From a bacterium (GTDB taxonomy: Bacteria; Patescibacteriota; Minisyncoccia; Phycocordibacterales; JBBTRF01), in assembly GCA_037130265.1 (NCBI GenBank), contig JBAXTI010000001.1:98092-162091 (forward strand): a DNA stretch of 64,000 nucleotides, given 5' to 3'. Below, piece after piece: positions 2 to 56,588 of this stretch. The notes below the pieces were generated by a model that ran no database searches, was not told the origin of the DNA, and saw only the letters and a list, made by a program, of their open reading frames with translations. The first letter of the stretch is position 1, and every line of letters starts with the position of its first letter. The translations under genes and the position numbers were made by a program.

Positions 2-1060
2 GGCCGTATCGTGCGCCTCCAGGCGAATGAGCGAGAAGAGGTGAAGAAGGTGTATGCCGGAGAAATCGCCGCTGCGGTGGGTCTCAAGGATGCGCTTACC
101 TCACACACTTTCTGTGACGAAGAGCAGCCGGTTATTCTCGAAGCAATCAAGTTTATGGAGCCGGTGGTCTCTCTTCGTGTAGAGCCAAAGACCAAAGCCG
201 ATCAGGAAAAGATGGGCATGGCTTTGAAGAAACTCGGAAACGAAGACCCAACCTTCAAGATTAGTTCCAACTCAGAGACTGGTGAAACCATTATTTCAGG
301 TATGGGAGAACTTCACTTGGAAATCATGGTGGACCGTATGAAGCGTGAATTCGGTGTCGAAGCGAACGTTGGCAAGCCTCAGGTAGCATACCGAGAGACC
401 ATTCAGGGTGAGGCAGAGGCAGAAGAGAAGTACATCAAGCAGACCGGAGGAAAGGGTCAGTACGGTCACGTGATCATCACACTCCGACCAATGAAGCCAT
501 TGGAAGAGGGGGAGAAGGTGAAGAAGAATGTCAGCCGATTCGCCGACTTCGAATTTATCAACTCAATCAAGGGAGGTGCGATTCCAGGAGAATTCATCCC
601 TGCGGTGGAGAAGGGTGTACACGAGGCGATGGACCGAGGTGTTATCGCCGGATACCGAATGGTGAATGTGTCTTGTGAATTGACGTTCGGTAGCTACCAC
701 GATGTGGACTCATCAGAAATCGCGTACAAGATCGCTGGTTCATTGGCTTTCCAGAGCGCATCAAAGCGTGCGAAGCCGGTGATTCTCGAGCCGATCATGA
801 AGGTGGAGGTATTGTTCCCAGAGAAGTTTATGGGTGATATCACTGGTAGCATCTCTTCAAAGCGAGGTACTATCGAGGAAATGACTGAGCGAGGCCAGGC
901 GAAGGTGATGCATGCCAAGGTACCGTTGTCCGAAATGTTCGGTTACACCACCCAGCTCCGATCTATGACCTCAGGACAGGGTTCTGCAACCATGGAATTC
1001 GATCATTACGCGCCGGTGCCGAAGTTTGTGGAGCAGCAGATTATTGAGGCTCGTAAATAA
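2..1060 (+). CDS. fusA: Elongation factor G, C-terminal part (5' end outside window)
   Basis: Translation ([33 protein letters not shown]... domains III-V) is unmistakably EF-G; ORF is open to the window edge, stop TAA at 1058-1060. Confidence 0.95.
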
Positions 1061-6157: not shown

Positions 6158-7006
6158 ATGAAACACTATAAACCATTCACAAAGTCTCGCCGAGGTATGA
6201 CCACTGTGTCATACAGCGAACACTTGACCACAGACACTCCTCACAAGGCGCTCGTCTCTGGATTCAAGCATCGAGTTGGTCGCAACTCTGACGGTCGCAT
6301 CACTGTGCGACACAAGGGAGGTGGACACAAGCGACTCTATCGACATGTCGACTTCGTCTTCGATAAGAAAGACATTCCAGCTATCGTACAGACCATTGAG
6401 TACGATCCAAACCGAACTGGTTTCATTGCGCTCGTGTGTTACAAGGATGGTGAGAAGCGATACATCCTTTCTCCAAAGGATCTCAAGGTAGGGGACAGCA
6501 TTATCGTGTCTGAGAAGGCAGAGCTCAAGGTGGGCAATCGTACCCTTTTGAAGAATATTCCTGTAGGTGCATTCGTGCACAGTGTGTCTATCCAGCCAAG
6601 CGGTGTCGCTCAGCTCGGACGATCAGCGGGTAACTTTATCCAGGTGATTGCACAGGACGCTGGCATGACTCACCTCAAGATGCCTTCTACAGAAGTGCGA
6701 AAGGTGCTCGACACCGCTTGGGGCTCTATTGGTACTGTTTCAAATGATGAAAATTGGCTCGTGAACATTGGTAAGGCAGGACGATCTCGTTGGATGGGTA
6801 TCCGACCGACTGTCCGAGGTATGGTGATGAACCCAGTAGACCACCCATACGGAGGAGGAGAAGGTAAGCAGGGCCGAGGTCTCCGCCGAGCGAAGACTAT
6901 GTGGGGTAAGCCTTCAGGTAAGGGTCAGAAGACTCGAACTCCGAAGCGATACTCAAATCAGTTTATCGTCTCTCGACGAAAGGTTGGAAAGAAGAAGGAG
7001 GCTTAA
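6158..7006 (+). CDS. rplB: 50S ribosomal protein L2
   Basis: GRNSDGRITVRHKGGGHKRLYR, MNPVDHPYGGGEGK motifs. Confidence 0.95.
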   Translation: MKHYKPFTKSRRGMTTVSYSEHLTTDTPHKALVSGFKHRVGRNSDGRITVRHKGGGHKRLYRHVDFVFDKKDIPAIVQTIEYDPNRTGFIALVCYKDGEKRYILSPKDLKVGDSIIVSEKAELKVGNRTLLKNIPVGAFVHSVSIQPSGVAQLGRSAGNFIQVIAQDAGMTHLKMPSTEVRKVLDTAWGSIGTVSNDENWLVNIGKAGRSRWMGIRPTVRGMVMNPVDHPYGGGEGKQGRGLRRAKTMWGKPSGKGQKTRTPKRYSNQFIVSRRKVGKKKEA

Positions 7007-7007
7007 A

Positions 7008-7049
7008 AGCCAAAAGAAAAATCCCCGAGAGGGGTTTTTTCTTTTGGCT
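7008..7049 (+). terminator. Rho-independent terminator after rplB, interrupting the S10 operon
   Basis: Nested hairpin agccaaaag..cccc-gaga-gggg-tttttt..cttttggct. Confidence 0.7.
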
Positions 7050-7095
7050 ACATAGCTCGGGCGTTTACACTTCGTAACTTTCCATATCTAGCGTA

Positions 7096-7123
7096 TTGAC
7101 AAAGTAATGACATCGTCTATACT
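7096..7123 (+). promoter_or_regulatory. Sigma70-like promoter for the dinJ-yafQ pair (ttgaca-17-tatact)
   Basis: ttgaca at 7096-7101, tatact at about 7118-7123, followed by a GAGGG RBS and ATG 7130. Confidence 0.55.
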
Positions 7124-7129
7124 AGAGGG

Positions 7130-7399
7130 ATGAATACTACCATTCAACTTCGTATCGATAAGGCGACCAAAGTAAGCGCTCAAAAGGTGCTTGCCGAGCT
7201 TGGCTTGGACATGTCTTCCGCCATGAAGCTCTTTCTCCGCACGGTGTCACGGACCAAATCGATTCCTTTCGAAATCCGCACGGTAAATGGCTTTACTCCT
7301 GCCCAGGAGGCGCGAATGCTCAAAGAGATTGCTTGGACCGAGAAGTATGGAAAAGGATACAAGACCGCTGAAGAATTAACAAAACACCTGCTCTCGTAA
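7130..7399 (+). CDS. dinJ: Type II antitoxin, RelB/DinJ family
   Basis: MNTTIQLRIDKATKVSAQKVLAELGLDMSSAMKLFLRTVSRTKSIPFEI matches the DinJ ribbon-helix-helix N-terminus (RIDEDLK..A..VL...GL..S.....L..V..E..LPF). Confidence 0.8.
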   Translation: MNTTIQLRIDKATKVSAQKVLAELGLDMSSAMKLFLRTVSRTKSIPFEIRTVNGFTPAQEARMLKEIAWTEKYGKGYKTAEELTKHLLS

Positions 7400-7402
7400 G
7401 TA

Positions 7403-7681
7403 ATGCTTGAAATAAGAGAGACGAAACAATTTAAAAAGCAATTCAAACGAGTTGCCCGATCGGGCGATTTCGATATGAGACTGTTCCATGCAGTGCTTAA
7501 TGTGTTGGCAAGAGGCGAATCTCTTGATGAAAAGTATCGAGATCACCAGCTTTCCGGTGACATGAAGGAGGCTCGAGAATGTCATCTAAAAGGTGATTTG
7601 TTGTTGGTGTATAAGATAAGAAAGGAAATTCTCGTTTTATCCCTTGTCGGCATTGGTAGCCACTCTGAACTCTTCGACTAA
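7403..7681 (+). CDS. yafQ: Type II toxin, YafQ family mRNA interferase
   Basis: YRDHQLSGDMKEARECHLKGDLLLVYKI...GSHSELF aligns with the YafQ core (YKDHPLQGSWKGYRDAHVEPDWILIYK...GTHAALF). Confidence 0.85.
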   Translation: MLEIRETKQFKKQFKRVARSGDFDMRLFHAVLNVLARGESLDEKYRDHQLSGDMKEARECHLKGDLLLVYKIRKEILVLSLVGIGSHSELFD

Positions 7682-7784
7682 ATGACGCCCAACAACAAGC
7701 ATTCTATTCTTTTTGCACCCTCCTTTCTGGGCCAGCAGGAGAGTTGAGTTGACTTTATTTCTGCTTCTGCTAAGATACTAAGCC

Positions 7785-8156
7785 ATGGCTCAGGTGAGCT
7801 ATTTTCATTCATACATGACACGATCACTCGCAAAAGGACCATACGTCGCGGAGATTCTTCTCAAGAAGATCGCCGGCAAGAAGCCAGAACAAGCTGGTGT
7901 TATTAAGACCTGGGCTCGAGACAGCCAGATCTCTCCTGAAATGGTGGGATATAAGTTTGGCGTTCACAATGGTAAGGATCATATTGAAGTACTTGTCACC
8001 GAGGAAATGGTAGGTCACCGCCTCGGTGAATTTGCGCTTACCCGAAAGTTTGTACGACACGGAGGTAAGATGCAGAAGGAGCTTGAAGCCAAGAAGAAGG
8101 AGGCTGAGATCGCAGCTGCCCAGACCGCAAAGGCTACCGTGGCAGAAAAGAAATAA
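7785..8156 (+). CDS. rpsS: 30S ribosomal protein S19 (true start may be ATG 7815; Ala/Lys-rich C-terminal tail)
   Basis: [18 protein letters not shown]...[13 protein letters not shown]. Confidence 0.92.
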
Positions 8157-11531: not shown

Positions 11532-11585
11532 GAGAGCGTGGTTTGACATCAGCAGTCCGTATTGCTAGTATGTCTCCACGCTCTC
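11532..11585 (+). promoter_or_regulatory. Hairpin (gagagcgtgg / ccacgctctc) whose loop contains a consensus-spaced promoter (ttgaca-17-tagtat) between rplE and rpsZ
   Basis: 10-bp stem flanking ttgaca (11543-48) and tagtat (11566-71). Confidence 0.5.
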
Positions 11586-11618
11586 AAAGAGCCTCATTTT
11601 TTTAATTACCAACACACC

Positions 11619-11804
11619 ATGGCGAAAACATCAGTCATCGCACGATCTCAGAAGAAACCGAAATTTTCTACTCGGATTGTTCGACGATGTTTCCGTTGCG
11701 GACGAAAGCGAGGTTTTATGCGAGATTTCGGTCTCTGCCGTATTTGCTTCCGTGAATACGCAAACGAAGGTATGATCCCAGGCATTAAAAAATCATCATG
11801 GTAA
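11619..11804 (+). CDS. rpsZ: 30S ribosomal protein S14 type Z (zinc-binding, 61 aa)
   Basis: [46 protein letters not shown]: CxxC...CxxC. Confidence 0.92.
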
Positions 11805-26240: not shown

Positions 26241-26732
26241 GTGGCTTATCAGAAGGAAAATAACTACGCGTTTATTGATACCCAGAATCTTATTTGTGGA
26301 GTGGAGAGGCTTGGTTGGATGGTGGACTTCGAAAAACTACATCGATACCTTTCTGATAAGTATCGAGTGACGAAGGCCTTCCTTTTTGTCGGATATTTGG
26401 ATAATTTTAAAGACACTTACGCTTTCCTACAAAAAATCGGATACACTTTATGTTTTAAGCCGGTTTCCGGTGGCGATGGTGGTGGTCTGAAGGCTAATAT
26501 CGATGCCGATTTGGTCCTAAAAGCTGTGCTGGAAAAAGACAATTACACAAAGGCCGTGATTATAAGTGGTGACGGAGACTTCTATTCCTTGGTCGAACAT
26601 CTTCGCAAAGAGAGCAAGCTTAAAATGATACTCTGCCCAGATTCCAAAAGATGTTCTATTCTGTTGCGGCGCTCTGCAGGAGGGTTGTTGGAGGGTCTGG
26701 AGAGGGAGAGCCGTGAAATAGGGAGGTTTTAA
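26241..26732 (+). CDS. NYN/LabA-like PIN-domain protein (putative RNase)
   Basis: AFIDTQNL ... IISGDGDF motifs characteristic of NYN domains; GTG start. Confidence 0.7.
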   Translation: MAYQKENNYAFIDTQNLICGVERLGWMVDFEKLHRYLSDKYRVTKAFLFVGYLDNFKDTYAFLQKIGYTLCFKPVSGGDGGGLKANIDADLVLKAVLEKDNYTKAVIISGDGDFYSLVEHLRKESKLKMILCPDSKRCSILLRRSAGGLLEGLERESREIGRF

Positions 26733-31408: not shown

Positions 31409-31491
31409 GGGATAATGATAGCATGGGGAAGAATTTGAAAAATTGATAGAAAGACGTAGTGTTTTTTCTGCGAAGGTTTATAATTGTAGGA

Positions 31492-32322
31492 ATGTCAGAG
31501 CAAATTACCTCAACTGGCCACAATAAGGAGTTCGAGTCGATCAAAGAAATCGACGAAAACGGTATTGAGTTCTGGAGAGCCAGAAATCTATTTTCTTTGC
31601 TTGGGTATGCGACGTGGCAGGCTTTTGATGAGGTTGTTTTACGTGGTGCCAAAGCGGCCCTAAATAGCGGTCAGGTGGTGGAAAACCATTTTAGCCGGTT
31701 GACTAAAATGGTCGAGACAGGGTCTGGTGCTAGGCGAGAAGTTAAGGACTGGAAACTTGATCGCTATGCATGTTATTTGATCGCCCAGAATGGCGACTCA
31801 AAGATTCCGCAGATTGCCTTGGCTCAAACGTATTTTGCTATTCAGACACGAAGGCAGGAAATATTTGATACGTTGTCCGAAGCAGAGAAAAGGCTTTTTA
31901 TCCGCGGGGAGGTGGCTAGTGAAAACAAGAAATTGTTTAAGACCGCAAAGGAAGCGGGAGTTTCTCATTTTGGATTATTTAATGATGCCGGATACAAAGG
32001 TTTGTATGGTGCACCGCTCTCTGTTGTTGAGGCGAAGAAGGGTATTAAGAAAGGAGAATTATTAGATCGTGCTGGTGCGACAGAGCTTGCGGCTAATTTG
32101 TTTCGTATCACACAGACGGATGAAAAGCTGAAGAAGGGTGGTGTGAGGGGCGATGGTCCTGCCCAGAATGCCCATAACATGGTCGGCGGAAAGATTCGTC
32201 AGACGATAAAGGATATTGGTGGGGAATTGCCAGAAAATTTGAAGCCGGAGAAGCATATCAAAGAGGTTGAGAAAGATGTGAAGCAGTTAGGGAAAGGGAA
32301 GAAGCTTTTTGATAATAAATAA
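31492..32322 (+). CDS. dinD: DNA-damage-inducible protein D homolog (Bro-N/KilA-N-like N-terminus)
   Basis: Blocks RYACYLIAQNGD, TYFAIQTRRQE, EKRLFIRGE, GATELAANLFRITQTDEKLKK shared with E. coli DinD; ATG 31492 preceded by aggaa RBS. Confidence 0.8.
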   Translation: MSEQITSTGHNKEFESIKEIDENGIEFWRARNLFSLLGYATWQAFDEVVLRGAKAALNSGQVVENHFSRLTKMVETGSGARREVKDWKLDRYACYLIAQNGDSKIPQIALAQTYFAIQTRRQEIFDTLSEAEKRLFIRGEVASENKKLFKTAKEAGVSHFGLFNDAGYKGLYGAPLSVVEAKKGIKKGELLDRAGATELAANLFRITQTDEKLKKGGVRGDGPAQNAHNMVGGKIRQTIKDIGGELPENLKPEKHIKEVEKDVKQLGKGKKLFDNK

Positions 32323-33670: not shown

Positions 33671-33677
33671 TTTGTTG

Positions 33678-34069
33678 TGGAGATGGGAGGAATTGAACCC
33701 CCGTGCAGAAGAGTCTAGTGAATGGGTCTACGAAGGGTAGGGCGCTTCTATGTCTGCGGGGCAGACAATTCGCGTGTGCCGTTATGAAACGACCGAAAGG
33801 CGGCTCGCGCTATTCCCATGATCTCGAATCGGCGGCGGGACTCCGCTGATCCTATTCCACAAATATAGCGTCAGGACCGAACGGTGTGGAAACCATCCGG
33901 CTGGCGTCGCTTAGGCTTTAGCGTAAGCGAATGCAAAGTCGTTCGCACTTGCGTACGGAGACTTTACAGATCCAAGTTTTGCACTTAGAATTTTCAGCCT
34001 TTTTAAGAGTTACTGAAGCTCTCCTTCGCACATTCAAGAGATATTCTTCCGTCGATGCCTGGCATCCCC
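33678..34069 (-). ncRNA. ssrA: tmRNA (SsrA), about 392 nt
   Basis: Minus strand 5'-GGGGATGCCAGGCATCGACGG... and 3'-...GGGGGTTCAATTCCTCCCATCTCCAC (tRNA-like T-arm and acceptor); candidate tag ORF ...GCGAACGACTTTGCATTCGCTTACGCTAAAGCCTAA (ANDFAFAYAKA*); smpB immediately upstream. Confidence 0.85.
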
Positions 34070-38219: not shown

Positions 38220-38292
38220 GCGCCCGTAGCTCAGTTGGTAGAGCAGGTGTCTTATACACACCTGGCCGGGGGTTCGAATCCCTCCGGGCGCA
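38220..38292 (+). tRNA. tRNA-Ile, anticodon UAU (TAT)
   Basis: Cloverleaf GCGCCCG/CGGGCGC acceptor, GCTC-AGTTGGTA-GAGC D-arm, anticodon stem GGTGT/ACACC with loop CTTATAC (U33, A37), T-arm GGGGG-TTCGAAT-CCCTC; CCA not encoded. Confidence 0.8.
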
Positions 38293-38309
38293 CATTTTTT
38301 CAGACGAGG

Positions 38310-43596: not shown

Positions 43597-44436
43597 GTGT
43601 CGGTGGAGACGACCAAGATCTCATTATTCGAAGGGAAAAAAGTACGTAAGACCATTCATTGTGATGAATGGTGGTTTTCTGTTGTTGATATAGTCGAAGC
43701 TCTCACGGACTCAACGAATCCACGCGTATATTGGGCAGTGATGAAAGATCGCTTGGAGAAAGATGAGAAAGTTCAACTGTTTACATTTTGTAAACAGTTG
43801 AAATTGGAGGCGTCTGATGGCAAAATGCGAGAAACTGATTGTGCGAATACCGAAGGGGTATTTCGTATTATTCAGTCTATTCCATCGCCGAAAGCGGAGC
43901 CATTTAAACGTTGGTTGGCACAGGTTGGGTACGAGCGTGTCAAGGAGATCGAAAATCCAGAATTGGCCCAGGACAGAATGAAGGCGTTGTATGAAAAGAA
44001 GGGTTATTCAAAGGGCTGGATCGACAAGCGGATTCGTGGCATTGCGATACGGCAGAGTTTGACTGATGAGTGGAAAGAAAGGGGGATTTTTGGCGAACAA
44101 GATTACGCTATCTTGACCGCTGAGATTTCTAAGGCGACATTCGGCATGACTCCGAGCGAGTACAAGGAGTACAAGCACTTGAAAAAGGAAAATTTGCGTG
44201 ATCACATGACCGACTTGGAGCTTATCTTTACGATGCTTGGAGAGCGGGTGACGACTGAGATATCGGAGATTGAGAAGCCGGAAACGTTTGATAAAAATAA
44301 GCAGGTGGCGAAGCGTGGTGGTAGGGTTGCGGGGAATGCGAGAAAGCAGACGGAGAAGGAAATTGGGAAGAGTGTGGTGTCGAAGAAGAATTTTTTGGGG
44401 AAAGGGGATGTTGGGGTGTTGGAGAAAGAGCTTTGA
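43597..44436 (+). CDS. Bro-N domain protein (phage antirepressor-like N-terminus) with C-terminal charged domain
   Basis: ISLFEGKKVRKTIHCDEWWFSVVDIVEALTDSTNP...GVFRIIQSIPSPKAEPFKRWLAQV is a typical Bro-N/KilA-N-like pattern; GTG start. Confidence 0.7.
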   Translation: MSVETTKISLFEGKKVRKTIHCDEWWFSVVDIVEALTDSTNPRVYWAVMKDRLEKDEKVQLFTFCKQLKLEASDGKMRETDCANTEGVFRIIQSIPSPKAEPFKRWLAQVGYERVKEIENPELAQDRMKALYEKKGYSKGWIDKRIRGIAIRQSLTDEWKERGIFGEQDYAILTAEISKATFGMTPSEYKEYKHLKKENLRDHMTDLELIFTMLGERVTTEISEIEKPETFDKNKQVAKRGGRVAGNARKQTEKEIGKSVVSKKNFLGKGDVGVLEKEL

Positions 44437-44440
44437 ATTT

Positions 44441-44530
44441 TGGCGGAAAGAGTGGGATTCGAACCCACGGTCCGTTTAACGGGACGACGGTTTAGTAAAC
44501 CGTTGATTTAAACCACTCATCCATCTTTCC
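44441..44530 (-). tRNA. Class II tRNA, Ser-like, anticodon ACU (A34), CCA encoded
   Basis: GGAAAGA/TCTTTCC acceptor, 3-bp D-stem with GAGTGGTTTAA loop, anticodon stem ACGGT/ACCGT with loop TTACTAA, long variable arm, discriminator G. Confidence 0.7.
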
Positions 44531-44719
44531 AAGGTTTTGATTCGGTCCCTCGACCATCGTCAAATTGATTCGGTCCCTACAGGACCTGTACAGGCTTCGT
44601 ATTTTCTTAAAGCTCGCACGGCTCGCTTATCGAAAATATACTCAGCCTTTTCGAATCCCCCACGAAAAGTCCGAAGGGACTTTTCTCCCTTCCTTGTTCG
44701 TGAGCTCCGCTCACTTTCT

Positions 44720-44807
44720 GCGGAAGGGGGGGGATTCGAACCCCCGAGGGTTGTTTAGACCCTGCCTCTTTAGCAAAGAGGTACATTCGACCGCTCTGAC
44801 ACCCCTC
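44720..44807 (-). tRNA. tRNA-Ser, anticodon GCU
   Basis: GGAGGGG/CCCTTCC acceptor, D-loop GAGCGGTCGAA, anticodon loop TTGCTAA, long variable arm, T-arm GGGGG-TTCGAAT-CCCCC, discriminator G. Confidence 0.8.
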
Positions 44808-44878
44808 CGTGGACATTGGCGATGATAGCATATTTTCCTGCGTTTATGCCAGTCTTTGTCGGACTAGCAGGGGGTATT

Positions 44879-48198: not shown

Positions 48199-49926
48199 AT
48201 GGATATTATCGACCTCTTGGTACAAAGAAAAGTCGTACATCCTGACGATGCTCAGGCTATTCGTGGCGAAGTGAAGAAGGGCGGAAATATCAACGACGTG
48301 CTACGTCGCCGCGGTATCGACCCGGAAGAGATCATGAAGAGCAAGTCGGAATATTTCAATGTGCCGACAAAGACACTTGGGAAAAACAAGGTGCCATTTG
48401 AGGTTCTGAAGTACATTCCGGAAGAGTCCGCTATCTACTACCAATTTGCACCTGTCGGTCTCACTGATGGCGTACTCGAAGTTGGTATGTTGAACCCGGA
48501 CAACATCGAAGCGCGCGACGCCCTCAACTTTATTTCTACGAAGGCGAACCTTCCGTACAAAATCTTTCTCGTATCCCAAGAGGATTTTGACGCGGTATTG
48601 CAAGCGTATAAAGGCATCGGTGGCGAAGTCGGTAAGGCGCTCACCGAACTTGGTACCGAAGATCACGGCCCGGCAAGTAGTGTGAATTTGAATGGCGAAG
48701 AGGGCGCGCTCGGTGAGAGCGCTTTCGACGGTGACGCTCATATCAAAGAAGATGCACCAGTGACGAAGATTGTCACCACGATTTTGCATTACGCGACCGA
48801 AGGGAATGCTTCCGATATTCACATTGAGGCGATGGAAGACACCGTCCGCGTGCGTTTTCGTGTCGACGGTTCGCTTGTAACGAGTCTCACTTTGCCTGGC
48901 AAGGTGCATTCGGCACTCGTGGCCCGCATCAAAATCCTCTGTAACATGAAGATTGACGAGAAGCGTAAGCCACAGGACGGTCGTTTTAGCCAAATGATCG
49001 ACGGCAAGAAGATCGACTACCGTGTCTCTACTTTCCCTGCATACTATGGCGAAAAGGTGGTGATGCGAATCCTCGACTCTGCCAAGGGTGTCCGACCGCT
49101 CGACCAGATGGGTCTCAGCGAACGCAATCTCAAGACGATTCGCGAGGCGATCGAGCGTCCATACGGACTCATTCTCATCTCTGGTCCGACTGGTTCCGGA
49201 AAATCCACCACTTTGTATTCGATGCTGAACTCGCTCGACAAGGAGACGCGCAATGTGCTTTCGCTCGAAGATCCAGTGGAGTACAACATTCCTGGCATGA
49301 GCCAGTCACAGGTGCGTCCAGAGATTGGTTACACCTTTGCTACTGGTCTGCGTACGACACTTCGACAAGACCCCGACATTATTATGGTGGGAGAAATTCG
49401 AGACAAAGAGACGGCGCAATTGGCGGTGCAGGCGGCACTCACCGGACATCTCGTGCTTTCGACCATTCACACCAACAATGCTGCCGGTGTGATCCCGCGT
49501 CTCATCGACATGGGTGTCGATCCATTCCTCATTGGCCCAACACTCATTTGTGCCATTGCTCAGCGTCTTGTCCGTACGCTCTGTGAAAACGGTGGCAAAG
49601 AAGTGTCAGTGGAGGGTCACATCAAGGACCTCATCGAAAGTGAATTCAAGGATTTGCCGGCAGAATTCCAGAAAGAGATTCCGAAAGGGAAGACGGTATA
49701 CGAAGCGATGGTCACCGATGATTGTCCGAAGGGTACTACCGGTCGCGCCGCAGTGATGGAGGTGCTTGTTATCGACAAAGACATCGAAAAAGTTATCCTG
49801 AACGGTCCGACCGAACCAGCCTTAATGAAGGTGGCTCGAGCAAGGGGGATGCTCACGATGAAAGAGGATGCTATTATAAAGGCATTCGAGCGAAAGATTC
49901 CATTTGAAGAGGTGACGAGTTTGTAA
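48199..49926 (+). CDS. pilB: Type IV pilus assembly ATPase PilB (GspE family)
   Basis: N-terminal GSPII domain, Walker A GPTGSGKSTT, Asp/His boxes, tetracysteine-less variant. Confidence 0.9.
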   Translation: MDIIDLLVQRKVVHPDDAQAIRGEVKKGGNINDVLRRRGIDPEEIMKSKSEYFNVPTKTLGKNKVPFEVLKYIPEESAIYYQFAPVGLTDGVLEVGMLNPDNIEARDALNFISTKANLPYKIFLVSQEDFDAVLQAYKGIGGEVGKALTELGTEDHGPASSVNLNGEEGALGESAFDGDAHIKEDAPVTKIVTTILHYATEGNASDIHIEAMEDTVRVRFRVDGSLVTSLTLPGKVHSALVARIKILCNMKIDEKRKPQDGRFSQMIDGKKIDYRVSTFPAYYGEKVVMRILDSAKGVRPLDQMGLSERNLKTIREAIERPYGLILISGPTGSGKSTTLYSMLNSLDKETRNVLSLEDPVEYNIPGMSQSQVRPEIGYTFATGLRTTLRQDPDIIMVGEIRDKETAQLAVQAALTGHLVLSTIHTNNAAGVIPRLIDMGVDPFLIGPTLICAIAQRLVRTLCENGGKEVSVEGHIKDLIESEFKDLPAEFQKEIPKGKTVYEAMVTDDCPKGTTGRAAVMEVLVIDKDIEKVILNGPTEPALMKVARARGMLTMKEDAIIKAFERKIPFEEVTSL

Positions 49927-49959
49927 TAACAATGATGACACTTTTTAAATAACACCCAC

Positions 49960-50355
49960 ATGGAAAACAGTAACAAAAAGAAAATACTCATCGTGGACGA
50001 CGACAAGTTCCTCGTGAACATGTACTCGATCAAATTCAAGGCGGCCGGCTTCGATGTGTATTCGGCGTTTGACGGTCAGGAGACACTCGCCAAGCTCAAG
50101 GATGGTCTTGTGCCTGATGTGGTGATGCTCGACATGATCATGCCGGCGATGGACGGCGTGGAGATCCTTGCGCGCATTCGAAAAGAGAATCTCGTGCCGA
50201 AGGCCAAGGTGGTCATTTTGTCGAACCAAAACCAGCCTTCGGATATCGAGCGAGCGAAGGCGTTGGGCATCAGTGGGTACATTGTGAAGGCGACGACGAT
50301 TCCATCGGAAGTGGTCGCGGAAGTCGAACTCATCTTAAAGGAAGACTTGCAATAA
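49960..50355 (+). CDS. Single-domain response regulator (CheY-like receiver)
   Basis: ILIVDDD...D(54-like)MIMPAMDG...K; 131 aa with no output domain. Confidence 0.8.
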   Translation: MENSNKKKILIVDDDKFLVNMYSIKFKAAGFDVYSAFDGQETLAKLKDGLVPDVVMLDMIMPAMDGVEILARIRKENLVPKAKVVILSNQNQPSDIERAKALGISGYIVKATTIPSEVVAEVELILKEDLQ

Positions 50356-50356
50356 G

Positions 50357-51424
50357 ATGCAAAACCAATACCAAGCACAACTCGAGTCGCTTCTCGCTAC
50401 GGTCCTCGCCGAGGGGGCTTCCGACCTGCATCTTTCCGAAGGGCGAACACCGGTGATTCGTATTGCGGGGCAACTTTTGCCGATGGTGAAGGCCGAGTCG
50501 CTCACCGCGGAGGTGCTCAGCGGTTTTGCTTCGGTATTTATGACCCCAGAACGCAAGCATCTTTTCATGACAAATCATGAAGCCGACTTCGCATACGACT
50601 TTCAAAGCAAGTCCCGCTTTCGTGTGAATGGGTTTTTTCAGCAAGGGAAGATGGGGTTCGCATTGCGCTTGATCCCAAACCAAATCCGCTCTATAGAAGA
50701 GCTTGGTTTGCCGCCAATTTTGAATACATTTACCGAAAAGCCACAAGGGTTCTTCTTGGTGGTGGGTCCGGTTGGGCAAGGCAAGTCTACGACATTGGCG
50801 GGAATGATCGAATACATCAATCGCCAGCGCGCCGCGCACATTCTCACGATTGAGGACCCGATCGAATATATCTATGAAGCGAAGCGTTCGATTGTCAATC
50901 AGCGTGAGGTTGGTGTCGACACGAAGAGTTTCTCTGGCGCATTAGCAGCGATGTTCCGCGAAGATATCAATGTTGCCCTGGTGGGGGAAATGCGTGATGC
51001 CGAAACGATTTCCACCGCGGTGACTGCGGCGGAGACCGGTCACCTGGTGCTCTCGACTTTGCATACCAACAATGCAGCGCAAACAATCAATCGTATTATC
51101 GATAGTTTCCCAGCGAGCCAGCAGGATCAGATTCGTTCCCAGCTCGCCGCCAGCCTTACTGGTATTTTCTCGCAGCGCCTGATTCCTCGTGTGTCTGGCG
51201 GCTTGGTGCCGGCATATGAATTGCTCATCAACAATACCGCTGTCGGCAATCTCATTCGTGAGAAGCGTGTGCATGAGATCAACACCGTACTCGAGACCAG
51301 CTCCGAGCAGGGGATGATCAGCATGGATCGTTGTCTTGCTGAGCTTGTACGAGCAGGGGAGATTACCGTGGAGAACGCATATTTGCACTCGACGAACACG
51401 AAGATTCTGGAGCGATTGCTCTAG
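50357..51424 (+). CDS. pilT: Twitching motility ATPase PilT
   Basis: GPVGQGKSTT Walker A, AHILTIEDPIEY, GHLVLSTLHTNNA. Confidence 0.9.
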   Translation: MQNQYQAQLESLLATVLAEGASDLHLSEGRTPVIRIAGQLLPMVKAESLTAEVLSGFASVFMTPERKHLFMTNHEADFAYDFQSKSRFRVNGFFQQGKMGFALRLIPNQIRSIEELGLPPILNTFTEKPQGFFLVVGPVGQGKSTTLAGMIEYINRQRAAHILTIEDPIEYIYEAKRSIVNQREVGVDTKSFSGALAAMFREDINVALVGEMRDAETISTAVTAAETGHLVLSTLHTNNAAQTINRIIDSFPASQQDQIRSQLAASLTGIFSQRLIPRVSGGLVPAYELLINNTAVGNLIREKRVHEINTVLETSSEQGMISMDRCLAELVRAGEITVENAYLHSTNTKILERLL

Positions 51425-51456
51425 AAAGCCTCGCGTGAAAGCGCCAACATATTCAC

Positions 51457-52659
51457 ATGATATTCAATTACACCACAATCGACGCAGCGGGAACCAAGTC
51501 TCAGGGCACCATTGATGCCGTGAGTGTCGATGTGGCCATCAGCTCGCTGCAACGCCGTGGACTCACGATCGTCACGATCAAGGCTGAGCAGAAAGAGTCG
51601 GCACTCGACAAATTGACCTTCTTTGGCCACGTCACCAACAAAGATGTGGTGATTTTGTCTCGTCAGATGTCGACACTTTTTTCTGCGCAGATCTCCGCGC
51701 TCCGCGTCTTTCGTCTCCTCGGTTCCGAGACCGAAAAGCCGCAGCTTCGGGTAGTGCTCAATACTGTGGCCGATGACCTCCAGGGGGGTGCCCAGATTTC
51801 CAAGGCGCTGTCGAAGCATCCAGAGGTGTTTTCAGATTTTTATGTCAACATGGTGCGCTCCGGCGAAGAGTCCGGCAAGCTCGACCAGATTTTGCTCTAT
51901 CTCGCCGACTACCTCGATCGATCGTTTGAGGTTACTTCGAAGGCGAAGAACGCTCTTATCTATCCGGCCTTCGTGATCGCGACCTTCACTGTGGTGATGG
52001 TGTTGATGCTTACGATGGTGATCCCAAATATTAGCTCGATTTTGAAGGATTCTGGCCAGGAGGTGCCGATTTACACCAAAATTGTGTTGGGCATCAGCGA
52101 TATCGCGGTGCATTACGGTATCTACGCACTCATCATCCTTGTTGTTGGCGGGTTCTTCTTCTATCGCTTTGCTCGTACCGTCGATGGCGGCATGGCACTC
52201 AATCGTTTACAAATCTCGTTGCCGTATATCGGCACACTCTACAAAAAGCTGTATTTGTCGCGAATTTCCGACAACATGAACACGATGCTTCTGTCGGCGA
52301 TCCCGATCGTGAAGGCGTTGGAAGTGACCGGTGCGGTGGTGGGAAGTGCGGTGTACCAGGCGGTCCTCGGCAAGATCCTCGAAGAAGTGAAGACCGGCAG
52401 CTCCTTGGCTGAAGCGTTTGGCCGCTATCCGGAGATTCCGACTATTATGGTGCAAATGGTGAAGGTGGGCGAGGAGACAGGCGAATTGGGCAATATTCTC
52501 CAGAATCTCTCGAAGTTCTACACTCGCGAGGTCACCAACGCCGTGGATACCTTGGTGGGATTGATCGAGCCAGCGATGATCGTGTCGCTTGGTATTGGTG
52601 TGGCCGTGTTGCTCGCTTCGGTGCTGATTCCGATCTACAACATCTCGGCGGGGGCTTAA
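51457..52659 (+). CDS. pilC: Type IV pilus platform protein PilC (GspF family)
   Basis: Duplicated GspF domains, 3 TM, about 400 aa. Confidence 0.88.
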   Translation: MIFNYTTIDAAGTKSQGTIDAVSVDVAISSLQRRGLTIVTIKAEQKESALDKLTFFGHVTNKDVVILSRQMSTLFSAQISALRVFRLLGSETEKPQLRVVLNTVADDLQGGAQISKALSKHPEVFSDFYVNMVRSGEESGKLDQILLYLADYLDRSFEVTSKAKNALIYPAFVIATFTVVMVLMLTMVIPNISSILKDSGQEVPIYTKIVLGISDIAVHYGIYALIILVVGGFFFYRFARTVDGGMALNRLQISLPYIGTLYKKLYLSRISDNMNTMLLSAIPIVKALEVTGAVVGSAVYQAVLGKILEEVKTGSSLAEAFGRYPEIPTIMVQMVKVGEETGELGNILQNLSKFYTREVTNAVDTLVGLIEPAMIVSLGIGVAVLLASVLIPIYNISAGA

Positions 52660-52674
52660 GGAAATGAAAGGGAA

Positions 52675-52703
52675 GGCCCGCGCCGTACGGCGCGGGCCTT
52701 TTG
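52675..52703 (+). terminator. Rho-independent terminator after pilC
   Basis: ggcccgcgcc-gtac-ggcgcgggcc plus tttt. Confidence 0.75.
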
Positions 52704-52855
52704 TTATCCACACCCCCATTTCCACGGCCAATCAACGGGAGTATAATAAAGGGCAAGGTTTGTATACGACCTTCAGCAACGAAGGCGGTCGAGGGGAAAA
52801 CCGGAAATATTCATTCAATTACATTATTACAAATTAGAAATTAATCGATTTATAT

Positions 52856-53353
52856 ATGAAGAATTCACGAGGTTTTACACTCATCGAATTGTTGGTGGTC
52901 ATCGCAATCATCGGTATCTTGTCTTCAGTCGTATTGGCGAGCTTGAGCTCTGCTCGAAATAAGGGCAAGGACGCAGCAGTAAAGAGCGGTCTTTCAAGTC
53001 TCCGAACTCAGATGGAGATTGACTCAAATGGTGCCAATTATGGTGCAGCTGCTACTTACGCAACTGCAGCTGGTACAAATGCTGCTTGTGCTGTTGGTAA
53101 CTTTAATGCGTCTACTATCACACCGATCAAGACTAATTTGACTGGTAATCTCGCAGTTTCAACCAACATCGTTTGTTCAGTTGATGTTGCACATGCAACG
53201 AACCCAGCTACCAAGTGGGCGATTGCAGCCATCCTTCCTAGTGGTGCAGGTCTTCAGTGTATTGACAGCAGCGGAAATGCTCAGAATTATCCAGCCGTAA
53301 CTACAGTTGGTAGTATTACAACCGCACAGGTAAACAACGGTTCTTGTATCTAA
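52856..53353 (+). CDS. pilA: Type IV pilin, probable major pilin
   Basis: Prepilin leader MKNSRG|FTLIELLVVIAIIGIL; own tataat promoter (about 52741) with about 110-nt leader and a strong terminator downstream. Confidence 0.85.
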   Translation: MKNSRGFTLIELLVVIAIIGILSSVVLASLSSARNKGKDAAVKSGLSSLRTQMEIDSNGANYGAAATYATAAGTNAACAVGNFNASTITPIKTNLTGNLAVSTNIVCSVDVAHATNPATKWAIAAILPSGAGLQCIDSSGNAQNYPAVTTVGSITTAQVNNGSCI

Positions 53354-53364
53354 GCAGTAATTCC

Positions 53365-53420
53365 TAGTCGACCAAACAAAAAACCCACTACCATAGTGGG
53401 TTTTTTGTTTGGTCGACTAG
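53365..53420 (+). terminator. Strong nested-hairpin terminator after pilA
   Basis: ctagtcgaccaaacaaaaaa-cccacta-cca-tagtggg-ttttttgtttggtcgactag. Confidence 0.8.
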
Positions 53421-53474
53421 TCTTTTGGGGGTATAATGAAAAAACATTATAGGCATAAGGATTTATATGTAATT

Positions 53475-53972
53475 ATGAAAAATGAATCTACACAGAATGG
53501 TTTCACTCTTATCGAGCTTCTTGTTGTAATTGGTATTGTCGGTGTTCTTGCCACTGTCATGCTTGCGGTGTTGGGTACAACTAGAAAACAATCTATCGAC
53601 ACTGCGATCAAGCAAACTTTGTCAGGTACAAAGAACCAGGCGGAGCTTTATTACTACAATAACGCCAATAGTTATAGTAATGTTTGTGCGTCGGGAGCAG
53701 TTTCTCTAATTGGGGCTACCAGATCTATTTATCTTCAAGTTGCAGACGCAGCAAAAAAAGCAGGTATTGCGATTGCGTCGGTAAAGGTAAATCCTGTTGG
53801 TGGCGGCGCCTATAATCAGGTCACTTGCAATGATTCTTCTGCAGCGTGGGCTGCAGAAGTGCCACTGAGCACTAGTAAGTCAGGGGCTCCGGTGATGCTC
53901 TGTGTTGATAGTGCGGGTAAATTGAAACAGGAGAGTGTGGTTCTTGGAGTAGGTGCAGTTATTTGTCAATAA
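53475..53972 (+). CDS. Type IV pilin-like protein
   Basis: MKNESTQNG|FTLIELLVVIGIVGVL prepilin N-terminus. Confidence 0.8.
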   Translation: MKNESTQNGFTLIELLVVIGIVGVLATVMLAVLGTTRKQSIDTAIKQTLSGTKNQAELYYYNNANSYSNVCASGAVSLIGATRSIYLQVADAAKKAGIAIASVKVNPVGGGAYNQVTCNDSSAAWAAEVPLSTSKSGAPVMLCVDSAGKLKQESVVLGVGAVICQ

Positions 53973-53979
53973 AACCAAT

Positions 53980-54462
53980 ATGAAAAAAAATATACAACAT
54001 AATCAGTTAAAAGGCTTTACCCTCGTCGAACTCCTTGTTGTCATTGCGATTATCGGTATTCTTTCTTCGGTGGTTCTCACCAGTCTGAACAGTGCCCGTG
54101 CCAAAGCGCGCGATGCTCGACGTATCGCCGAGGTGGCAGAAATGGTGAAGGCGATCCAGGTTATTGATATTGACCCGGCTCCAGTACTGGCGGGCTGTGT
54201 AGGGGCGCATGCCGATGCTTCGACCTGTACCACACCAAACTTCTCCTTGTATCATGATGTATCTGGCGCGACCGTTGCGTGTACCGGCGCAAGCACTGCG
54301 AGCTGCCAGTATTCGATCTCAAAGGAGGATGGCACTGCTGGCGCGACGGCACAAAACTTTCAGGTATGCAGCTATTTGGAAAAAGGCGCAGGAACATTGG
54401 CTGCAGGTTCTTTCAGTGCTCGAAGCAACACTGGTGGCGGTGTCGTAGAGGGCTGCAACTAA
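53980..54462 (+). CDS. Type IV pilin-like protein
   Basis: MKKNIQHNQLKG|FTLVELLVVIAIIGIL. Confidence 0.8.
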   Translation: MKKNIQHNQLKGFTLVELLVVIAIIGILSSVVLTSLNSARAKARDARRIAEVAEMVKAIQVIDIDPAPVLAGCVGAHADASTCTTPNFSLYHDVSGATVACTGASTASCQYSISKEDGTAGATAQNFQVCSYLEKGAGTLAAGSFSARSNTGGGVVEGCN

Positions 54463-54464
54463 TC

Positions 54465-54965
54465 ATGATATTTATTCAACACAAAAATCAGCAGGCGAAC
54501 GCCGGACAGAAGGCCTTCACCCTCATCGAATTGTTGGTGGTCATCGCAATCATCGGTATCTTGTCTTCGGTCGTATTGGCGAGCCTCAATACTGCGCGTG
54601 CGAAGGGAAGGGATGCACGGCGAGTGTCGGATATCAAGCAAATTCAGCTCGCGCTTGAGCTGTATGCGGATCAGAACCTTGGCAAATATCCAACAGCTCT
54701 TTCATCTGTTGCACCGACCTACATTTCGACCTTACCAAAGGACCCAAGTACGAACAACGATTATTTCTATGCCGCCCTTGGAGCCACGAGTTGTACCGGC
54801 TACCACATCGGCGGATTGCTCGAGCAGAATAATCCGGTGCTCACAGGAGACCGAGATGCGGCCGCGGCGATGTATTGTCCGGGAAGTGCAGCTGATTTTA
54901 ACGGTACAGCCAATTGTGTTGCAACTACCGGCACCGACATGTGTTTCGACGTAGCAAACCAATAA
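54465..54965 (+). CDS. Type IV pilin-like protein
   Basis: ...QKA|FTLIELLVVIAIIGIL; C-terminal Cys pair. Confidence 0.8.
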   Translation: MIFIQHKNQQANAGQKAFTLIELLVVIAIIGILSSVVLASLNTARAKGRDARRVSDIKQIQLALELYADQNLGKYPTALSSVAPTYISTLPKDPSTNNDYFYAALGATSCTGYHIGGLLEQNNPVLTGDRDAAAAMYCPGSAADFNGTANCVATTGTDMCFDVANQ

Positions 54966-54966
54966 C

Positions 54967-55836
54967 ATGTTGGCGACTGCGCTTTTGATTCCGACTCCGT
55001 TCATTGTGGCGATGTTTGTGCTCGGCATGCTGGTGGGGAGCTTTCTCAATGTGGTTGCGTTGCGGTACAACACCGGCCGCCTGCGCCAAGCGCTCTTTGG
55101 CGGCGGCCGGTCGCATTGTTTTTCCTGCGACAAGACGCTCGCGTGGTATGAGCTCGTACCTGTGGCGAGCTTCCTCACGCAGGCTGGCCGCTGTCGCGGC
55201 TGCAAGTGCCGACTCTCGTGGCAGTATCCGCTTGTCGAATTGCTCACCGGTTTTCTCTTTGTAATCGCCTTTTTGCACGAGGCAGTCGGTGCACATTCCC
55301 TCGGACTGCTCCTCGCACTCATCATTCTCTCGCTACTTGTGGTGATCGGTGTATACGACTTGAGACACAAAATCATTCCTGACGCTCTGGCGTATGCTTT
55401 TGCAGCTTTCGGCTTGGTGTACAGTGTGGCGCGGCTATTTTCGGGCCCATCCAGCCTCGAATACACCAACACGCTATTTCAAGCCCTCCCTTGGCTGCTC
55501 GCCGCTGGTCCGCTCCTGTTCCTGCCGTTCTATTTGCTCTGGAAGGTGTCTGGGGGCCGCTGGATTGGCCTTGGGGATGGAAAGCTGGCTTTGGGCATGG
55601 GCTGGTTTCTCGGCCTTTCTGGGGGCATTTCGGCTGCTGTTCTAGGGTTTTGGCTGGGGGCTTTGGTTGCTGTTTGTATACTCGCTGTGCAACGCGCTTG
55701 GCCGAAACTCGGCTCAGCGCTCAACATGAAAAGCGAGATCCCGTTTGCGCCCTTCCTCATCATTGGCACTATTCTTGTGTATGCGACCGGCGTGATGCCG
55801 ACCGACATTGTCCTCTTCATTCAGAACCTTTTTTGA
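54967..55836 (+). CDS. pilD: Prepilin peptidase (A24 family)
   Basis: N-terminal CxxC...CxxC zinc motif (HCFSCD, CRGCKC), 8 TM, catalytic Asp motifs including GLGDGK. Confidence 0.88.
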   Translation: MLATALLIPTPFIVAMFVLGMLVGSFLNVVALRYNTGRLRQALFGGGRSHCFSCDKTLAWYELVPVASFLTQAGRCRGCKCRLSWQYPLVELLTGFLFVIAFLHEAVGAHSLGLLLALIILSLLVVIGVYDLRHKIIPDALAYAFAAFGLVYSVARLFSGPSSLEYTNTLFQALPWLLAAGPLLFLPFYLLWKVSGGRWIGLGDGKLALGMGWFLGLSGGISAAVLGFWLGALVAVCILAVQRAWPKLGSALNMKSEIPFAPFLIIGTILVYATGVMPTDIVLFIQNLF

Positions 55837-55850
55837 CATACAATACAGGG

Positions 55851-56579
55851 ATGAATCGTGGGTTCACTCTCTTTGAAATGCTCGTGTCTTTGGGTATTTT
55901 CATGCTCCTGACCACCACGCTGCTGGTGAAGAATTCGCAATTCAAAGGCAATGTCGTGATCGGCAACACGGCATACCAGCTGGCTCTCGCTTTCCGTGAG
56001 GCACAATCATACGGCGTGAATGTTCGAGGTGTGGATCCGTCGACGACAGGTACTCCTACCAACTTTGTATACAATACTGCATACGGCGTGCATTTCGATT
56101 CATTGATCCCGTCTTCGTATTTGCTATTTGGCGACACGAATCCGTCGGCGTCTGGTGGCTCAGCGAATGTGGGTGATCGGCAATACACGAGCGCTCTTGG
56201 TTCCGTTGACGCCCTGGTTCGCACCTACCAGATCGGCTCCGGTACGGAAGTGGTGATGTTCTGTACGCTGCGCTCGACCGAGGTGCTGTGTAGTAACAGC
56301 GGTTCCGGGACGAGTCGACTCACTTGGCTCGATGTGAGTTTCCTCCGTCCGCAGCTTTCCGCGGCGATTCGCGATTCGTCGCAGACCGATCCAGCTTCGC
56401 AGGAGAGTATTTTATACGCTGCTTCAGCCTTGGTGGTCGTGAAAAATGCGCAAGGTATCTGCAAGGCTGTGAAGGTCACGAAGGCAGGCAGTGTTGGTGT
56501 GGTTGAAAATCCGAAGGAGTTGGACGGAGGAACCACTGGCTACGGCAAGGCAGTGATCGATTCCGGATTGTGTCCATAG
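55851..56579 (+). CDS. Minor pseudopilin (prepilin-type N-terminus)
   Basis: MNRG|FTLFEMLVSLGIFMLL. Confidence 0.75.
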   Translation: MNRGFTLFEMLVSLGIFMLLTTTLLVKNSQFKGNVVIGNTAYQLALAFREAQSYGVNVRGVDPSTTGTPTNFVYNTAYGVHFDSLIPSSYLLFGDTNPSASGGSANVGDRQYTSALGSVDALVRTYQIGSGTEVVMFCTLRSTEVLCSNSGSGTSRLTWLDVSFLRPQLSAAIRDSSQTDPASQESILYAASALVVVKNAQGICKAVKVTKAGSVGVVENPKELDGGTTGYGKAVIDSGLCP

Positions 56580-56588
56580 CAAATTTGT

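Follow-up and report, generated by a model that had tools for sequence, protein, structure and literature searches.

Between the ribosomal protein genes rplB (L2) and rpsS (S19) of the 64,000-nt stretch of DNA analysed here (hereafter the window; contig JBAXTI010000001.1 of assembly GCA_037130265.1, positions 98,092 to 162,091, from a bacterium of the Patescibacteriota), we found a toxin-antitoxin (TA) pair, and our results suggest that it is most probably an intact RelB/DinJ-YafQ cassette, horizontally acquired, lying in a pre-existing inter-operon gap of a Paceibacterota clade (Patescibacteria). An earlier note on this DNA had located the pair between rplB and rpsS, in agreement with the two open reading frames (ORFs) at 7130-7399 and 7403-7681, and had proposed that it split an intact S10 operon. 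The latter proposal did not hold, since clade members with gene-free gaps of 63-130 nt are already broken at this place. The decoupling of rpsS-rplQ from rpsJ-rplB that was read from it stands as regards the break itself, and falls as regards its cause, the break being older than the TA pair. Likewise, comparison of the S10 structure among relatives confirmed that rplB and rpsS are separated, and revealed that this separation is clade-wide and not unique to the TA pair.

Related loci were retrieved with an L2 query (80 from GTDB species representatives and 80 from metagenome contigs), and the distances from the rplB stop to rpsS are accurate to ~3 nt, the S19 query having begun one residue ahead of the methionine. 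The clade set comprised the 92 loci with an L2 at least 62% identical to that of the window, all of them from Paceibacterota (Nomura-, Zambryski-, Taylorbacteria and others). In this set, rpsS was located in 54 of 92 loci, with rplB-rpsS gaps of 18-4843 nt (median 699), while one further, negative gap value (L048) was attributed to a truncated L2 alignment and nine more loci extend at least 3 kb 3′ of rplB without rpsS. The median gap was 11 nt in 61 distant loci (other Patescibacteria, Bacilli, Mollicutes and others). Six distant loci displayed gaps above 700 nt, five of which fell inside the split clade of the L2 tree, and the sixth (L133), with a partial L2, was left out of the tree. Indeed, when 146 L2 proteins were placed in a neighbour-joining tree, every locus with a gap of 90 nt or more belonged to a single clade of 92 leaves, of which 83 are split, 1 is abutting and 8 are undeterminable, and among the 54 leaves outside it rplB and rpsS abut in 49 and are 65-75 nt apart in 3. 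The wide gaps were first seen in the GTDB loci and were replicated on the metagenome contigs. Because the split state is confined to one clade of the L2 tree, the break after rplB appears to be a single, old and ancestral event.

The promoter of rpsS follows the same distribution. A match of at least 9/12 to TTGACA-16..18-TATAAT within 130 nt 5′ of rpsS occurred in 48 of 52 clade loci, compared to 24 of 215 control windows taken within coding sequence and a single one of 61 outgroup loci, which, together with the site at 7749-7776 of the window, bears out the promoter that the earlier note had assigned to rpsS. Its typical form in the clade is TTGAC(A/T)-16-TGnTA(G/A/T)TAT, and it is kept where the gap of 63-138 nt holds no gene (L097, L042, L006, L089, L027, L010, L093 and L110), suggesting a clade-wide ancestral element. 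The clade leader that follows consists of a hairpin with the consensus AAGCUCG-loop-CGAGCUU, a U-run, an AU-rich stretch and the ATG. Across ~40 Paceibacterota loci (alignment A2; window 7749-7817), the block was seen as a near-consensus extended -10 promoter, 8-12 nt, a covarying hairpin of 5-7 bp (AGCUC...GAGCU) and an AU-rich stretch before the ATG, without an obvious Shine-Dalgarno sequence. When the explicit hairpin was scored on the 39 sequences of A2, 81.6% of the cells could pair versus 27-48% in slid controls, in which the hairpin partner was shifted by 1-3 columns; moreover, both partners vary in 4 of the 6 pairs, and the score was not reached by any of 500 shuffles. Note that RNAalifold predicted no structure on a MAFFT alignment of the rpsS leaders because of misregistration. 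In the window, the hairpin AUGGCUC-AGGU-GAGCUAU (7785-7802; -8.1 kcal/mol) was flagged as terminator-like, and the block could be an attenuator, a 5′ stabiliser or an insulator against read-through from the cargo.

The position of this hairpin also bears on the start of rpsS. The start chosen by the gene callers (ATG 7785, 123 aa) sits in the 5′ arm of the conserved hairpin, and the relatives start at the methionine of an MTRSL motif, which corresponds to ATG 7815 here (113 aa). The annotated start is thus probably too far upstream by about nine codons (30 nt). A comparable arrangement was observed elsewhere in the window, before rpsN (S14; 11543-11620), with TTGACA-17-TGcTAGTAT, 8 nt, a hairpin GCUCU-CAA-AGAGC, UUUUUUU, ~20 nt and the ATG, and the tuf leader carries a GCUCA...UGAGCUUU element near 2720-2750. 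A promoter followed by a hairpin and U-run leader may therefore be a general feature of the translation-gene operons of this organism.

The content of the gap varied widely among relatives. The 142 gap ORFs of at least 45 aa fell into 121 sequence clusters, and the only common occupant was a DAGK_prokar (dgkA-like) membrane protein of ~130 aa, present in 11 loci (L009, L011, L015, L018, L022, L025, L035, L037, L041, L044 and L046), usually as the last gene before rpsS; no homologue of it was found in the 64-kb window. Other cargo with Pfam matches included phosphoribosyltransferases (PRTase), orotidine monophosphate decarboxylases, an aminotransferase, a pyridoxal-phosphate-dependent decarboxylase, a histidine kinase, hydrolases, a PfkB kinase and an IS200-like transposase, next to large secreted proteins and many ORFs without a Pfam match. 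PemK/MazF toxins were located directly 3′ of rplB in three loci (L039:5965-6444, L040:5926-6306 and L043:6157-6570), as was a HEPN (NTase_sub_bind) and nucleotidyltransferase (HEPN/MNT) pair in a fourth (L024:4449-5139), so that TA capture at the rplB|rpsS junction appears to be recurrent and to involve at least three families. Most cargo ORFs (83 of 117) are co-oriented with the operon, and in 35 of 43 cases the gap had a lower GC content than its locus (Wilcoxon p = 8e-5), as in the window, where the cassette has a GC fraction of 0.448 against ~0.50 in the flanking ribosomal genes. The window gap displayed none of the hallmarks of an integrative element that were looked for, with no recombinase in the gap and no tRNA nearby, and only repeats of 10-11 nt, at chance level, turned up when the surroundings of the cassette were searched for flanking repeats or a target-site duplication. 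These results show that the junction is a variable cargo slot between core genes. Since gene-free gaps retain the rpsS promoter, the split state is monophyletic and unrelated cargo is found elsewhere, the decoupling would predate the TA pair and be independent of it.

Two loci in which rpsS was not reached deserve mention in their own right. At L012 (7459-10805), a type II restriction-modification (R-M) system lies within 5 kb 3′ of rplB; it is made up of a double C5-methyltransferase of 841 aa and, in convergent orientation, a restriction enzyme of 274 aa. At L045 (9359-10606), where rplJ and rplL follow rplB and no rpsS occurs within 5 kb, a 416-aa protein located ~3.5 kb 3′ of rplB aligns along its entire length with a PADLOC model for a CAS-V-F effector, ‘Cas12_x1’ (E 5e-144). 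That this match is a mislabelled serine hydroxymethyltransferase was considered and rejected, as the protein has no Pfam match at 1e-3.

The identity of both genes was consistent across independent profiles. The antitoxin ORF (MEI6345714.1, named RelB/DinJ family antitoxin by NCBI) matched Pfam RelB PF04221 (5.4e-14, 52.3 bits, cut-off 22.4) and TIGR02384 RelB_DinJ (2.1e-21, 76 bits, cut-off 45.65), and its residues 2-56 aligned to the ribbon-helix-helix domain of E. coli DinJ (4Q2U_A, 6e-06), from which it is predicted to combine an N-terminal domain of this type with a C-terminal toxin-binding tail. The toxin ORF (MEI6345715.1, YafQ family toxin) matched Pfam YafQ_toxin PF15738 (3.2e-29, 101.5 bits, cut-off 30) and TIGR02385 RelE_StbE (73.7 bits, cut-off 27.9). 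Its nearest solved relatives are H. pylori HP0892 (4NRN/2OTR, 5e-22) and HP0894 (4LTT/1Z8M, 3e-16), followed by the YafQ structures of V. cholerae and E. coli. A RelE/YafQ microbial-RNase fold is predicted by the AF2 model built on 41 homologues (pLDDT 89.4), for which the best 12 Foldseek matches in the PDB were all YafQ-family members (TM 0.73-0.82). Residues H48, E59, H61, D65, H87 and F91 correspond to H50, D61, H63, D67, H87 and F91 of E. coli YafQ in an alignment of the two; the 41 homologues show no change at H48 and H87, and conservation at E59, H61 and D65 is 90% or more. For these YafQ residues, Maehigashi et al. proposed the roles of general base, general acid and stacking residue (PMC4652777). 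The DinJ-like ribbon-helix-helix antitoxin and the YafQ-like toxin of the earlier note were thus upheld, the former by the RelB and TIGR02384 profiles and the DinJ structure, the latter by profiles, solved homologues, predicted fold and catalytic residues. The antitoxin gene precedes the toxin gene in the same direction with a 3-nt gap and one promoter-like site ahead. Altogether, the pair has every appearance of a bona fide, intact type II TA module of the RelB/DinJ-YafQ kind, and the toxin, by family membership, would be an endoribonuclease of the RelE/ParE superfamily. No paralogues of the TA genes were found in the 64-kb window.

The RelB/YafQ pair was absent from the ~160 related rplB loci, and the next-closest toxins (48-62% identity) adjoin unrelated genes. 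Members of the YafQ toxin family occur in 1229 plasmid records and also on phages, always below 50% identity, while a scan of IMG/VR with the toxin returned no relatives. This distribution suggests that the cassette was acquired horizontally and is lineage-specific, being apparently confined to one species-level lineage, within which at least two diverged strains carry it at the rplB|rpsS site.

Comparison of these strains indicates how the cassette evolves. Between the window and the second strain (L083), the last 63 residues of L2 and the whole of S19 are 100% identical, L22 is 99.3% and S3 98.6% identical, whereas the toxin is 71.7% and the antitoxin 88.8% identical, with a single difference in the N-terminal 62 residues of the antitoxin and the changes clustering in its C-terminal tail. 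At the nucleotide level, identity is 95-100% up to ~7310, ~65-70% from there to ~7745 and 96-100% beyond, and a 59-nt indel follows the toxin. Synonymous divergence (dS) was 0 at the rplB 3′ end (150/150 nt identical), 0.11 in rpsS, 0.23 in rplV, 0.32 in rpsC and 0.39 in antitoxin codons 1-60, compared to 1.83 in the toxin and saturation in antitoxin codons 61-89. As these values for the toxin and the antitoxin tail far exceed those of the flanks, this segment diverged long before its surroundings did, a pattern that speaks for replacement of the allele through recombination and indicates that the toxin and the antitoxin tail were swapped as a unit by homologous recombination within the species. 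The ratios of nonsynonymous to synonymous divergence (dN/dS; toxin 0.12, antitoxin segments 0.02-0.09) indicate that purifying selection acts on both alleles. A third allele, on a 753-nt NCBI contig (L082), encodes a toxin 95% identical to that of the window and is itself a mosaic, with a near-identical antitoxin tail (dS 0.11) and a divergent N-terminal part (dS 0.91). Upstream of it lies a hairpin of 125 nt (L082:1-125; -59 kcal/mol, z -8.8) that has the AAAAGAAAAA/TTTTTCTTTT outer stem in common with the rplB terminator of the window; this contig is too short to reach the position of rplB. We also observed that the outer stem (AAAAGAAAAA / UUUUUCUUUU) resembles the window terminator with ~80 nt as if inserted in its loop.

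The signals around the cassette are consistent with two separate transcription units, of which rplB would be the final gene of the upstream one and rpsS the opening gene of the downstream one. The rplB-rpsS gap of the window measures 808 nt and contains a terminator-like hairpin and two promoters (Table 1). The terminator that the earlier note had seen after rplB was recovered as a hairpin with arms at 7008-7026 and 7031-7049 (19 nt, 95% complementary; -28 kcal/mol, z = -6.6, 0 of 200 shuffles as stable), with an A-rich 5′ side, a T-rich 3′ side and a CCCC/GGGG core, and it is maintained in the second strain through compensatory changes. Elements of A-tract, hairpin and T-tract also occur 3′ of rplB in about half of the related loci. 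As for the ttgaca-17-tatact promoter of that note, the site is present at 7096-7123, as one of only two matches of the 11/12 type in 18 kb on both strands, and the spacer had been miscounted, being 16 nt and not 17. Its hexamers are unchanged in the window, L083 and L082 alleles, and three spacer positions differ. The antitoxin ATG (7130) lies 7 nt past the -10 element, which ends at 7123, so that transcription would start at or next to this ATG and the TA transcript is, from this spacing, probably leaderless. Candidate operator arms GTATTGAC (7093-7100) and GTCTATAC (7115-7122) span the -35 and -10 elements; they match at 7/8, which is about chance level, and are unchanged in L082 and L083 but overlap the promoter hexamers. 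A repeat search of the TA promoter yielded no significant inverted repeat, and no shared operator could be derived with the 62%-identical homologue L084, the upstream region of which has a different promoter and palindrome. Searches of the terminator, the spacer and the rpsS leader against Rfam returned no family, with only sub-threshold chance matches to the hairpin. The lysine codons of the window ribosomal genes are strongly biased towards AAG, and those of the TA genes are used at ~1:1. E. coli YafQ cuts at AAA-G/A.

Table 1. Features of the rplB-rpsS junction, in window coordinates.
Feature	Position	Strand	Basis
rplB (ribosomal protein L2)	6158..7006	+	ORF; Pfam Ribosomal_L2_N 6.6e-35, L2_C 1e-41
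Terminator-like element after rplB	7008..7049	+	A-tract, GC core hairpin, T-tract
Putative TA promoter, TTGACA-16-TATACT	7096..7123	+	11/12 consensus
Candidate operator, imperfect inverted repeat	7093..7122	.	Read from sequence
RelB/DinJ-family antitoxin, 89 aa	7130..7399	+	Pfam RelB, TIGR02384
YafQ-family toxin, 92 aa	7403..7681	+	Pfam YafQ_toxin, structure matches
Divergent allele between strains (antitoxin C-terminal tail, toxin, downstream spacer)	7310..7745	.	Window vs L083
59-nt spacer 3′ of toxin, not in strain L083	7683..7741	.	Alignment
Putative rpsS promoter, TTGACT, 16-nt spacer, TG-n-TAAGAT	7749..7776	+	Clade-wide conservation
rpsS leader hairpin AUGGCUC-AGGU-GAGCUAU, then U-run	7785..7805	+	Folding, covariation
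rpsS (S19)	7815..8156	+	Pfam Ribosomal_S19 1e-31

From these elements, we propose that the rpsJ-rplB unit would end at the terminator and that the unit from rpsS onward would be transcribed from its own strong promoter and hairpin/U-run leader. The cassette would have brought its own sigma-70-type promoter and no terminator, and TA transcripts would have to terminate at the leader hairpin of rpsS or else continue into this gene. As expected for the family, the antitoxin dimer would bind and repress the promoter region through its ribbon-helix-helix domain, and its C-terminal tail would neutralise the toxin. Once the antitoxin is depleted, YafQ, if it behaves as its relatives do, would enter the ribosomal A site and cleave the translated mRNA, with acid-base catalysis by a His/His/Asp/His set. 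The extremely conserved flanks would make homologous exchange of anything between them easy. Whether the junction works as an insulated ‘cargo bay’ (terminator, variable genes, consensus promoter and hairpin/U-run leader), in which TA modules of at least three families and further accessory genes are repeatedly captured, and whole cassettes or their toxin-specificity halves pass between strains by homologous recombination in the flanks, is in our estimation evenly balanced; in such an arrangement, the rpsS operon may be protected by the leader hairpin against upstream insertions.

Several observations weigh against the interpretation of an intact YafQ cassette in an older gap. The toxin scores 75.5 bits against TIGR00053, the strict YafQ subfamily, below the cut-off of 87.25, and it is thus best described as a YafQ family member that apparently falls outside this narrow subfamily. 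The GC core stem of the rplB terminator measures 4 bp only. The L2 tree was built by neighbour joining from a single protein and carries no support values, and the ‘open’ gaps, with no rpsS within 5 kb, could be rearrangements and not long insertions. Finally, the closest relative by L2 is only ~72% identical, and therefore no true same-genus ‘empty site’ genome was found: an exact-match scan of JGI metagenomes with the rplB 3′ end, in search of empty-site strains, gave 0 matches, and a protein-guided metagenome scan with L2 gave no relative closer than ~70-74% identity and no same-genus empty site. The rival accounts of the cassette have to be set against the same data. That the TA pair inserted into an intact S10 operon and itself created the terminator/promoter break would fit with the abutting rplB and rpsS of most bacteria (the outgroup median of 11 nt) and with the position of the cassette between a terminator and a promoter; however, both the promoter and the leader of rpsS are already in place in the gene-free relatives, and the split loci form a monophyletic group. 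Moreover, this promoter is situated beyond the recombining TA segment and recurs in genomes with other cargo, and rplB is followed by terminators of this A-tract/hairpin/T-tract design in relatives that carry no TA pair, all of which makes this origin very unlikely. An assembly or binning artefact that fused a TA-bearing fragment to the ribosomal cluster might be suspected of any metagenome-assembled genome, which is the source here, but the Logan contig L001 (possibly from the same sample) has the same arrangement with 0 mismatches in 6735 nt, and the ENA contig L083 (ERZ27247887), from a different strain and with different TA alleles, has the gene order and junctions of the window. With the same layout in both, the window junction is not an assembly chimera, and we give the artefact a negligible probability. 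A decaying, non-functional TA remnant is scarcely more credible: nothing beyond the small size of the genes speaks for it, and against it both ORFs are intact in three alleles, all the catalytic residues are kept, the dN/dS ratios are low in the toxin and in the antitoxin segments, and the promoter hexamers are invariant.

The remaining alternatives concern the role of the cassette and not its presence. If the TA promoter reads into rpsS, loss of the antitoxin under stress would derepress it and alter the expression of rpsS-rplV-rpsC and the genes that follow, and a ribosome-dependent toxin would then be wired into the control of the ribosomal-protein supply. This coupling draws on the lack of anything resembling a terminator from the toxin stop to the rpsS promoter (z +0.48 on folding 7679-7790), on the toxin stop of L083 lying only 8 nt from the rpsS -35 element and on the maintenance of the TA pair at this site in the diverged strains. 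It is nevertheless improbable, given that the first hairpin and U-run 3′ of the toxin (7785-7805, within the rpsS leader) could end such read-through, that the rpsS promoter itself is near consensus and that functionally unrelated cargo in the slot of the relatives argues against a site-specific function. A rather less doubtful alternative, which we still hold to be unlikely, replaces the role in stress-responsive growth control by phage defence through abortive infection, or by a selfish addiction module in a ‘safe harbour’ between essential genes, the molecular mechanism being unchanged. Other TA families in the slot (PemK and HEPN/MNT), the R-M system shortly 3′ of rplB in L012, the allele turnover with saturated dS, which fits diversifying pressure or frequent exchange, and the frequency of YafQ-family modules on plasmids and phages would agree with it, but most of the cargo (dgkA-like, pyrimidine genes and various enzymes) is not related to defence. 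Altogether, the position of the TA pair next to ribosomal genes is best explained by a permissive slot rich in recombination substrate, and a functional link between the toxin and the ribosomal genes is less likely.

Taken by itself, the TA module is routine, having already been named by the NCBI pipeline, and what counts for more is its setting. No gene arrangement of bacteria is regarded as more stable than the S10-spc-alpha string, the contiguity of which serves to build concatenated marker trees for uncultivated lineages. A string cut after rplB, with a hypervariable slot at the cut, would thus provide a useful synapomorphy for a whole clade of the Candidate Phyla Radiation, and it calls for caution in marker-based binning and contig linking. 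In addition, the slot offers a natural system for understanding how accessory genes are tolerated beside the most highly expressed essential genes, and the exchange of the toxin together with the antitoxin tail between strains provides a clear illustration of modular TA evolution. In the searchable literature, a limited library, we came across no account of this slot, none of TA modules lodged in the S10 string, and nothing relevant on rplB/rpsS insertions in Patescibacteria.

Elsewhere in the window, ARAGORN reported a tRNA-Ile with the anticodon TAT (38220-38293) and a tRNA-Ser with the anticodon ACT beside a tRNA-Ser(GCT) (44441-44808), both anticodons (TAT and ACT) being uncommon in bacteria; Rfam confirmed the tRNAs at 38220 and 44444, but not that at 44720-44808. 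Two paralogous proteins of ~280 aa with a BRO-N domain, which is typical of phage and antirepressor-like proteins, are encoded at 31459-32319 and 43597-44433, and a 163-aa protein with an NYN domain (PIN-like RNase) at 26241-26729; these may be further mobile or defence-related genes. A transfer-messenger RNA (tmRNA) gene on the reverse strand (33675-34069; Rfam 87 bits) and a type IV pilus-like cluster (48199-57116), in which several translated ORFs open with the pilin motif GFTLIELLVVI (seen in the translations alone), look ordinary for a patescibacterial genome.

Among known systems, E. coli DinJ-YafQ (4Q2U, 4ML0; PMC4652777) is likewise an antitoxin-first two-gene operon. DinJ residues 4-58, the ribbon-helix-helix, align with the N-terminus of the window antitoxin, whereas the C-terminal tails are not alignable; YafQ is only 29% identical to the window toxin, and its fold nevertheless matches (TM ~0.75) with the catalytic set conserved, E59 replacing D61. 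Unlike the E. coli pair, that of the window has a promoter geometry suggestive of a leaderless mRNA and lies between ribosomal protein genes. The H. pylori toxins HP0892 and HP0894 are closer, with ~40-48% identity, a fold TM of 0.82 and a common KYxDHxL...RECH...GSHSELF core; they belong to a different host phylum, and their partner antitoxins gave no RelB/DinJ match to that of the window at the level tested. To our knowledge, the genes of HP0892 and HP0894 are not in a ribosomal cluster.

With regard to the site, the S10 operon of E. coli is transcribed as one unit, rpsJ...rpsQ, under the control of a leader attenuator that responds to L4. Its gene list is given in Table 2 of PMC1924603. In contrast, the string of the present clade would be terminated after rplB and restarted before rpsS by a promoter and a hairpin/U-run leader, and in the window rplB and rpsS are, on the predicted signals, neither adjacent nor co-transcribed, as they are in the classical S10 operon. 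That horizontal gene transfer has chromosomal hotspots, bordered by conserved core genes, is a general concept of comparative genomics. As in such hotspots, rplB and rpsS bracket differing content of lower GC, including TA, R-M and transposase genes, and an allele was swapped with breakpoints in the conserved flanks. Unlike hotspots in general, the slot shows no integrase, tRNA or target-site duplication, housekeeping genes (dgkA-like, pyrE-like and pyrF-like) are also resident in it, and its flanks are neighbours in the most conserved gene string of bacteria.

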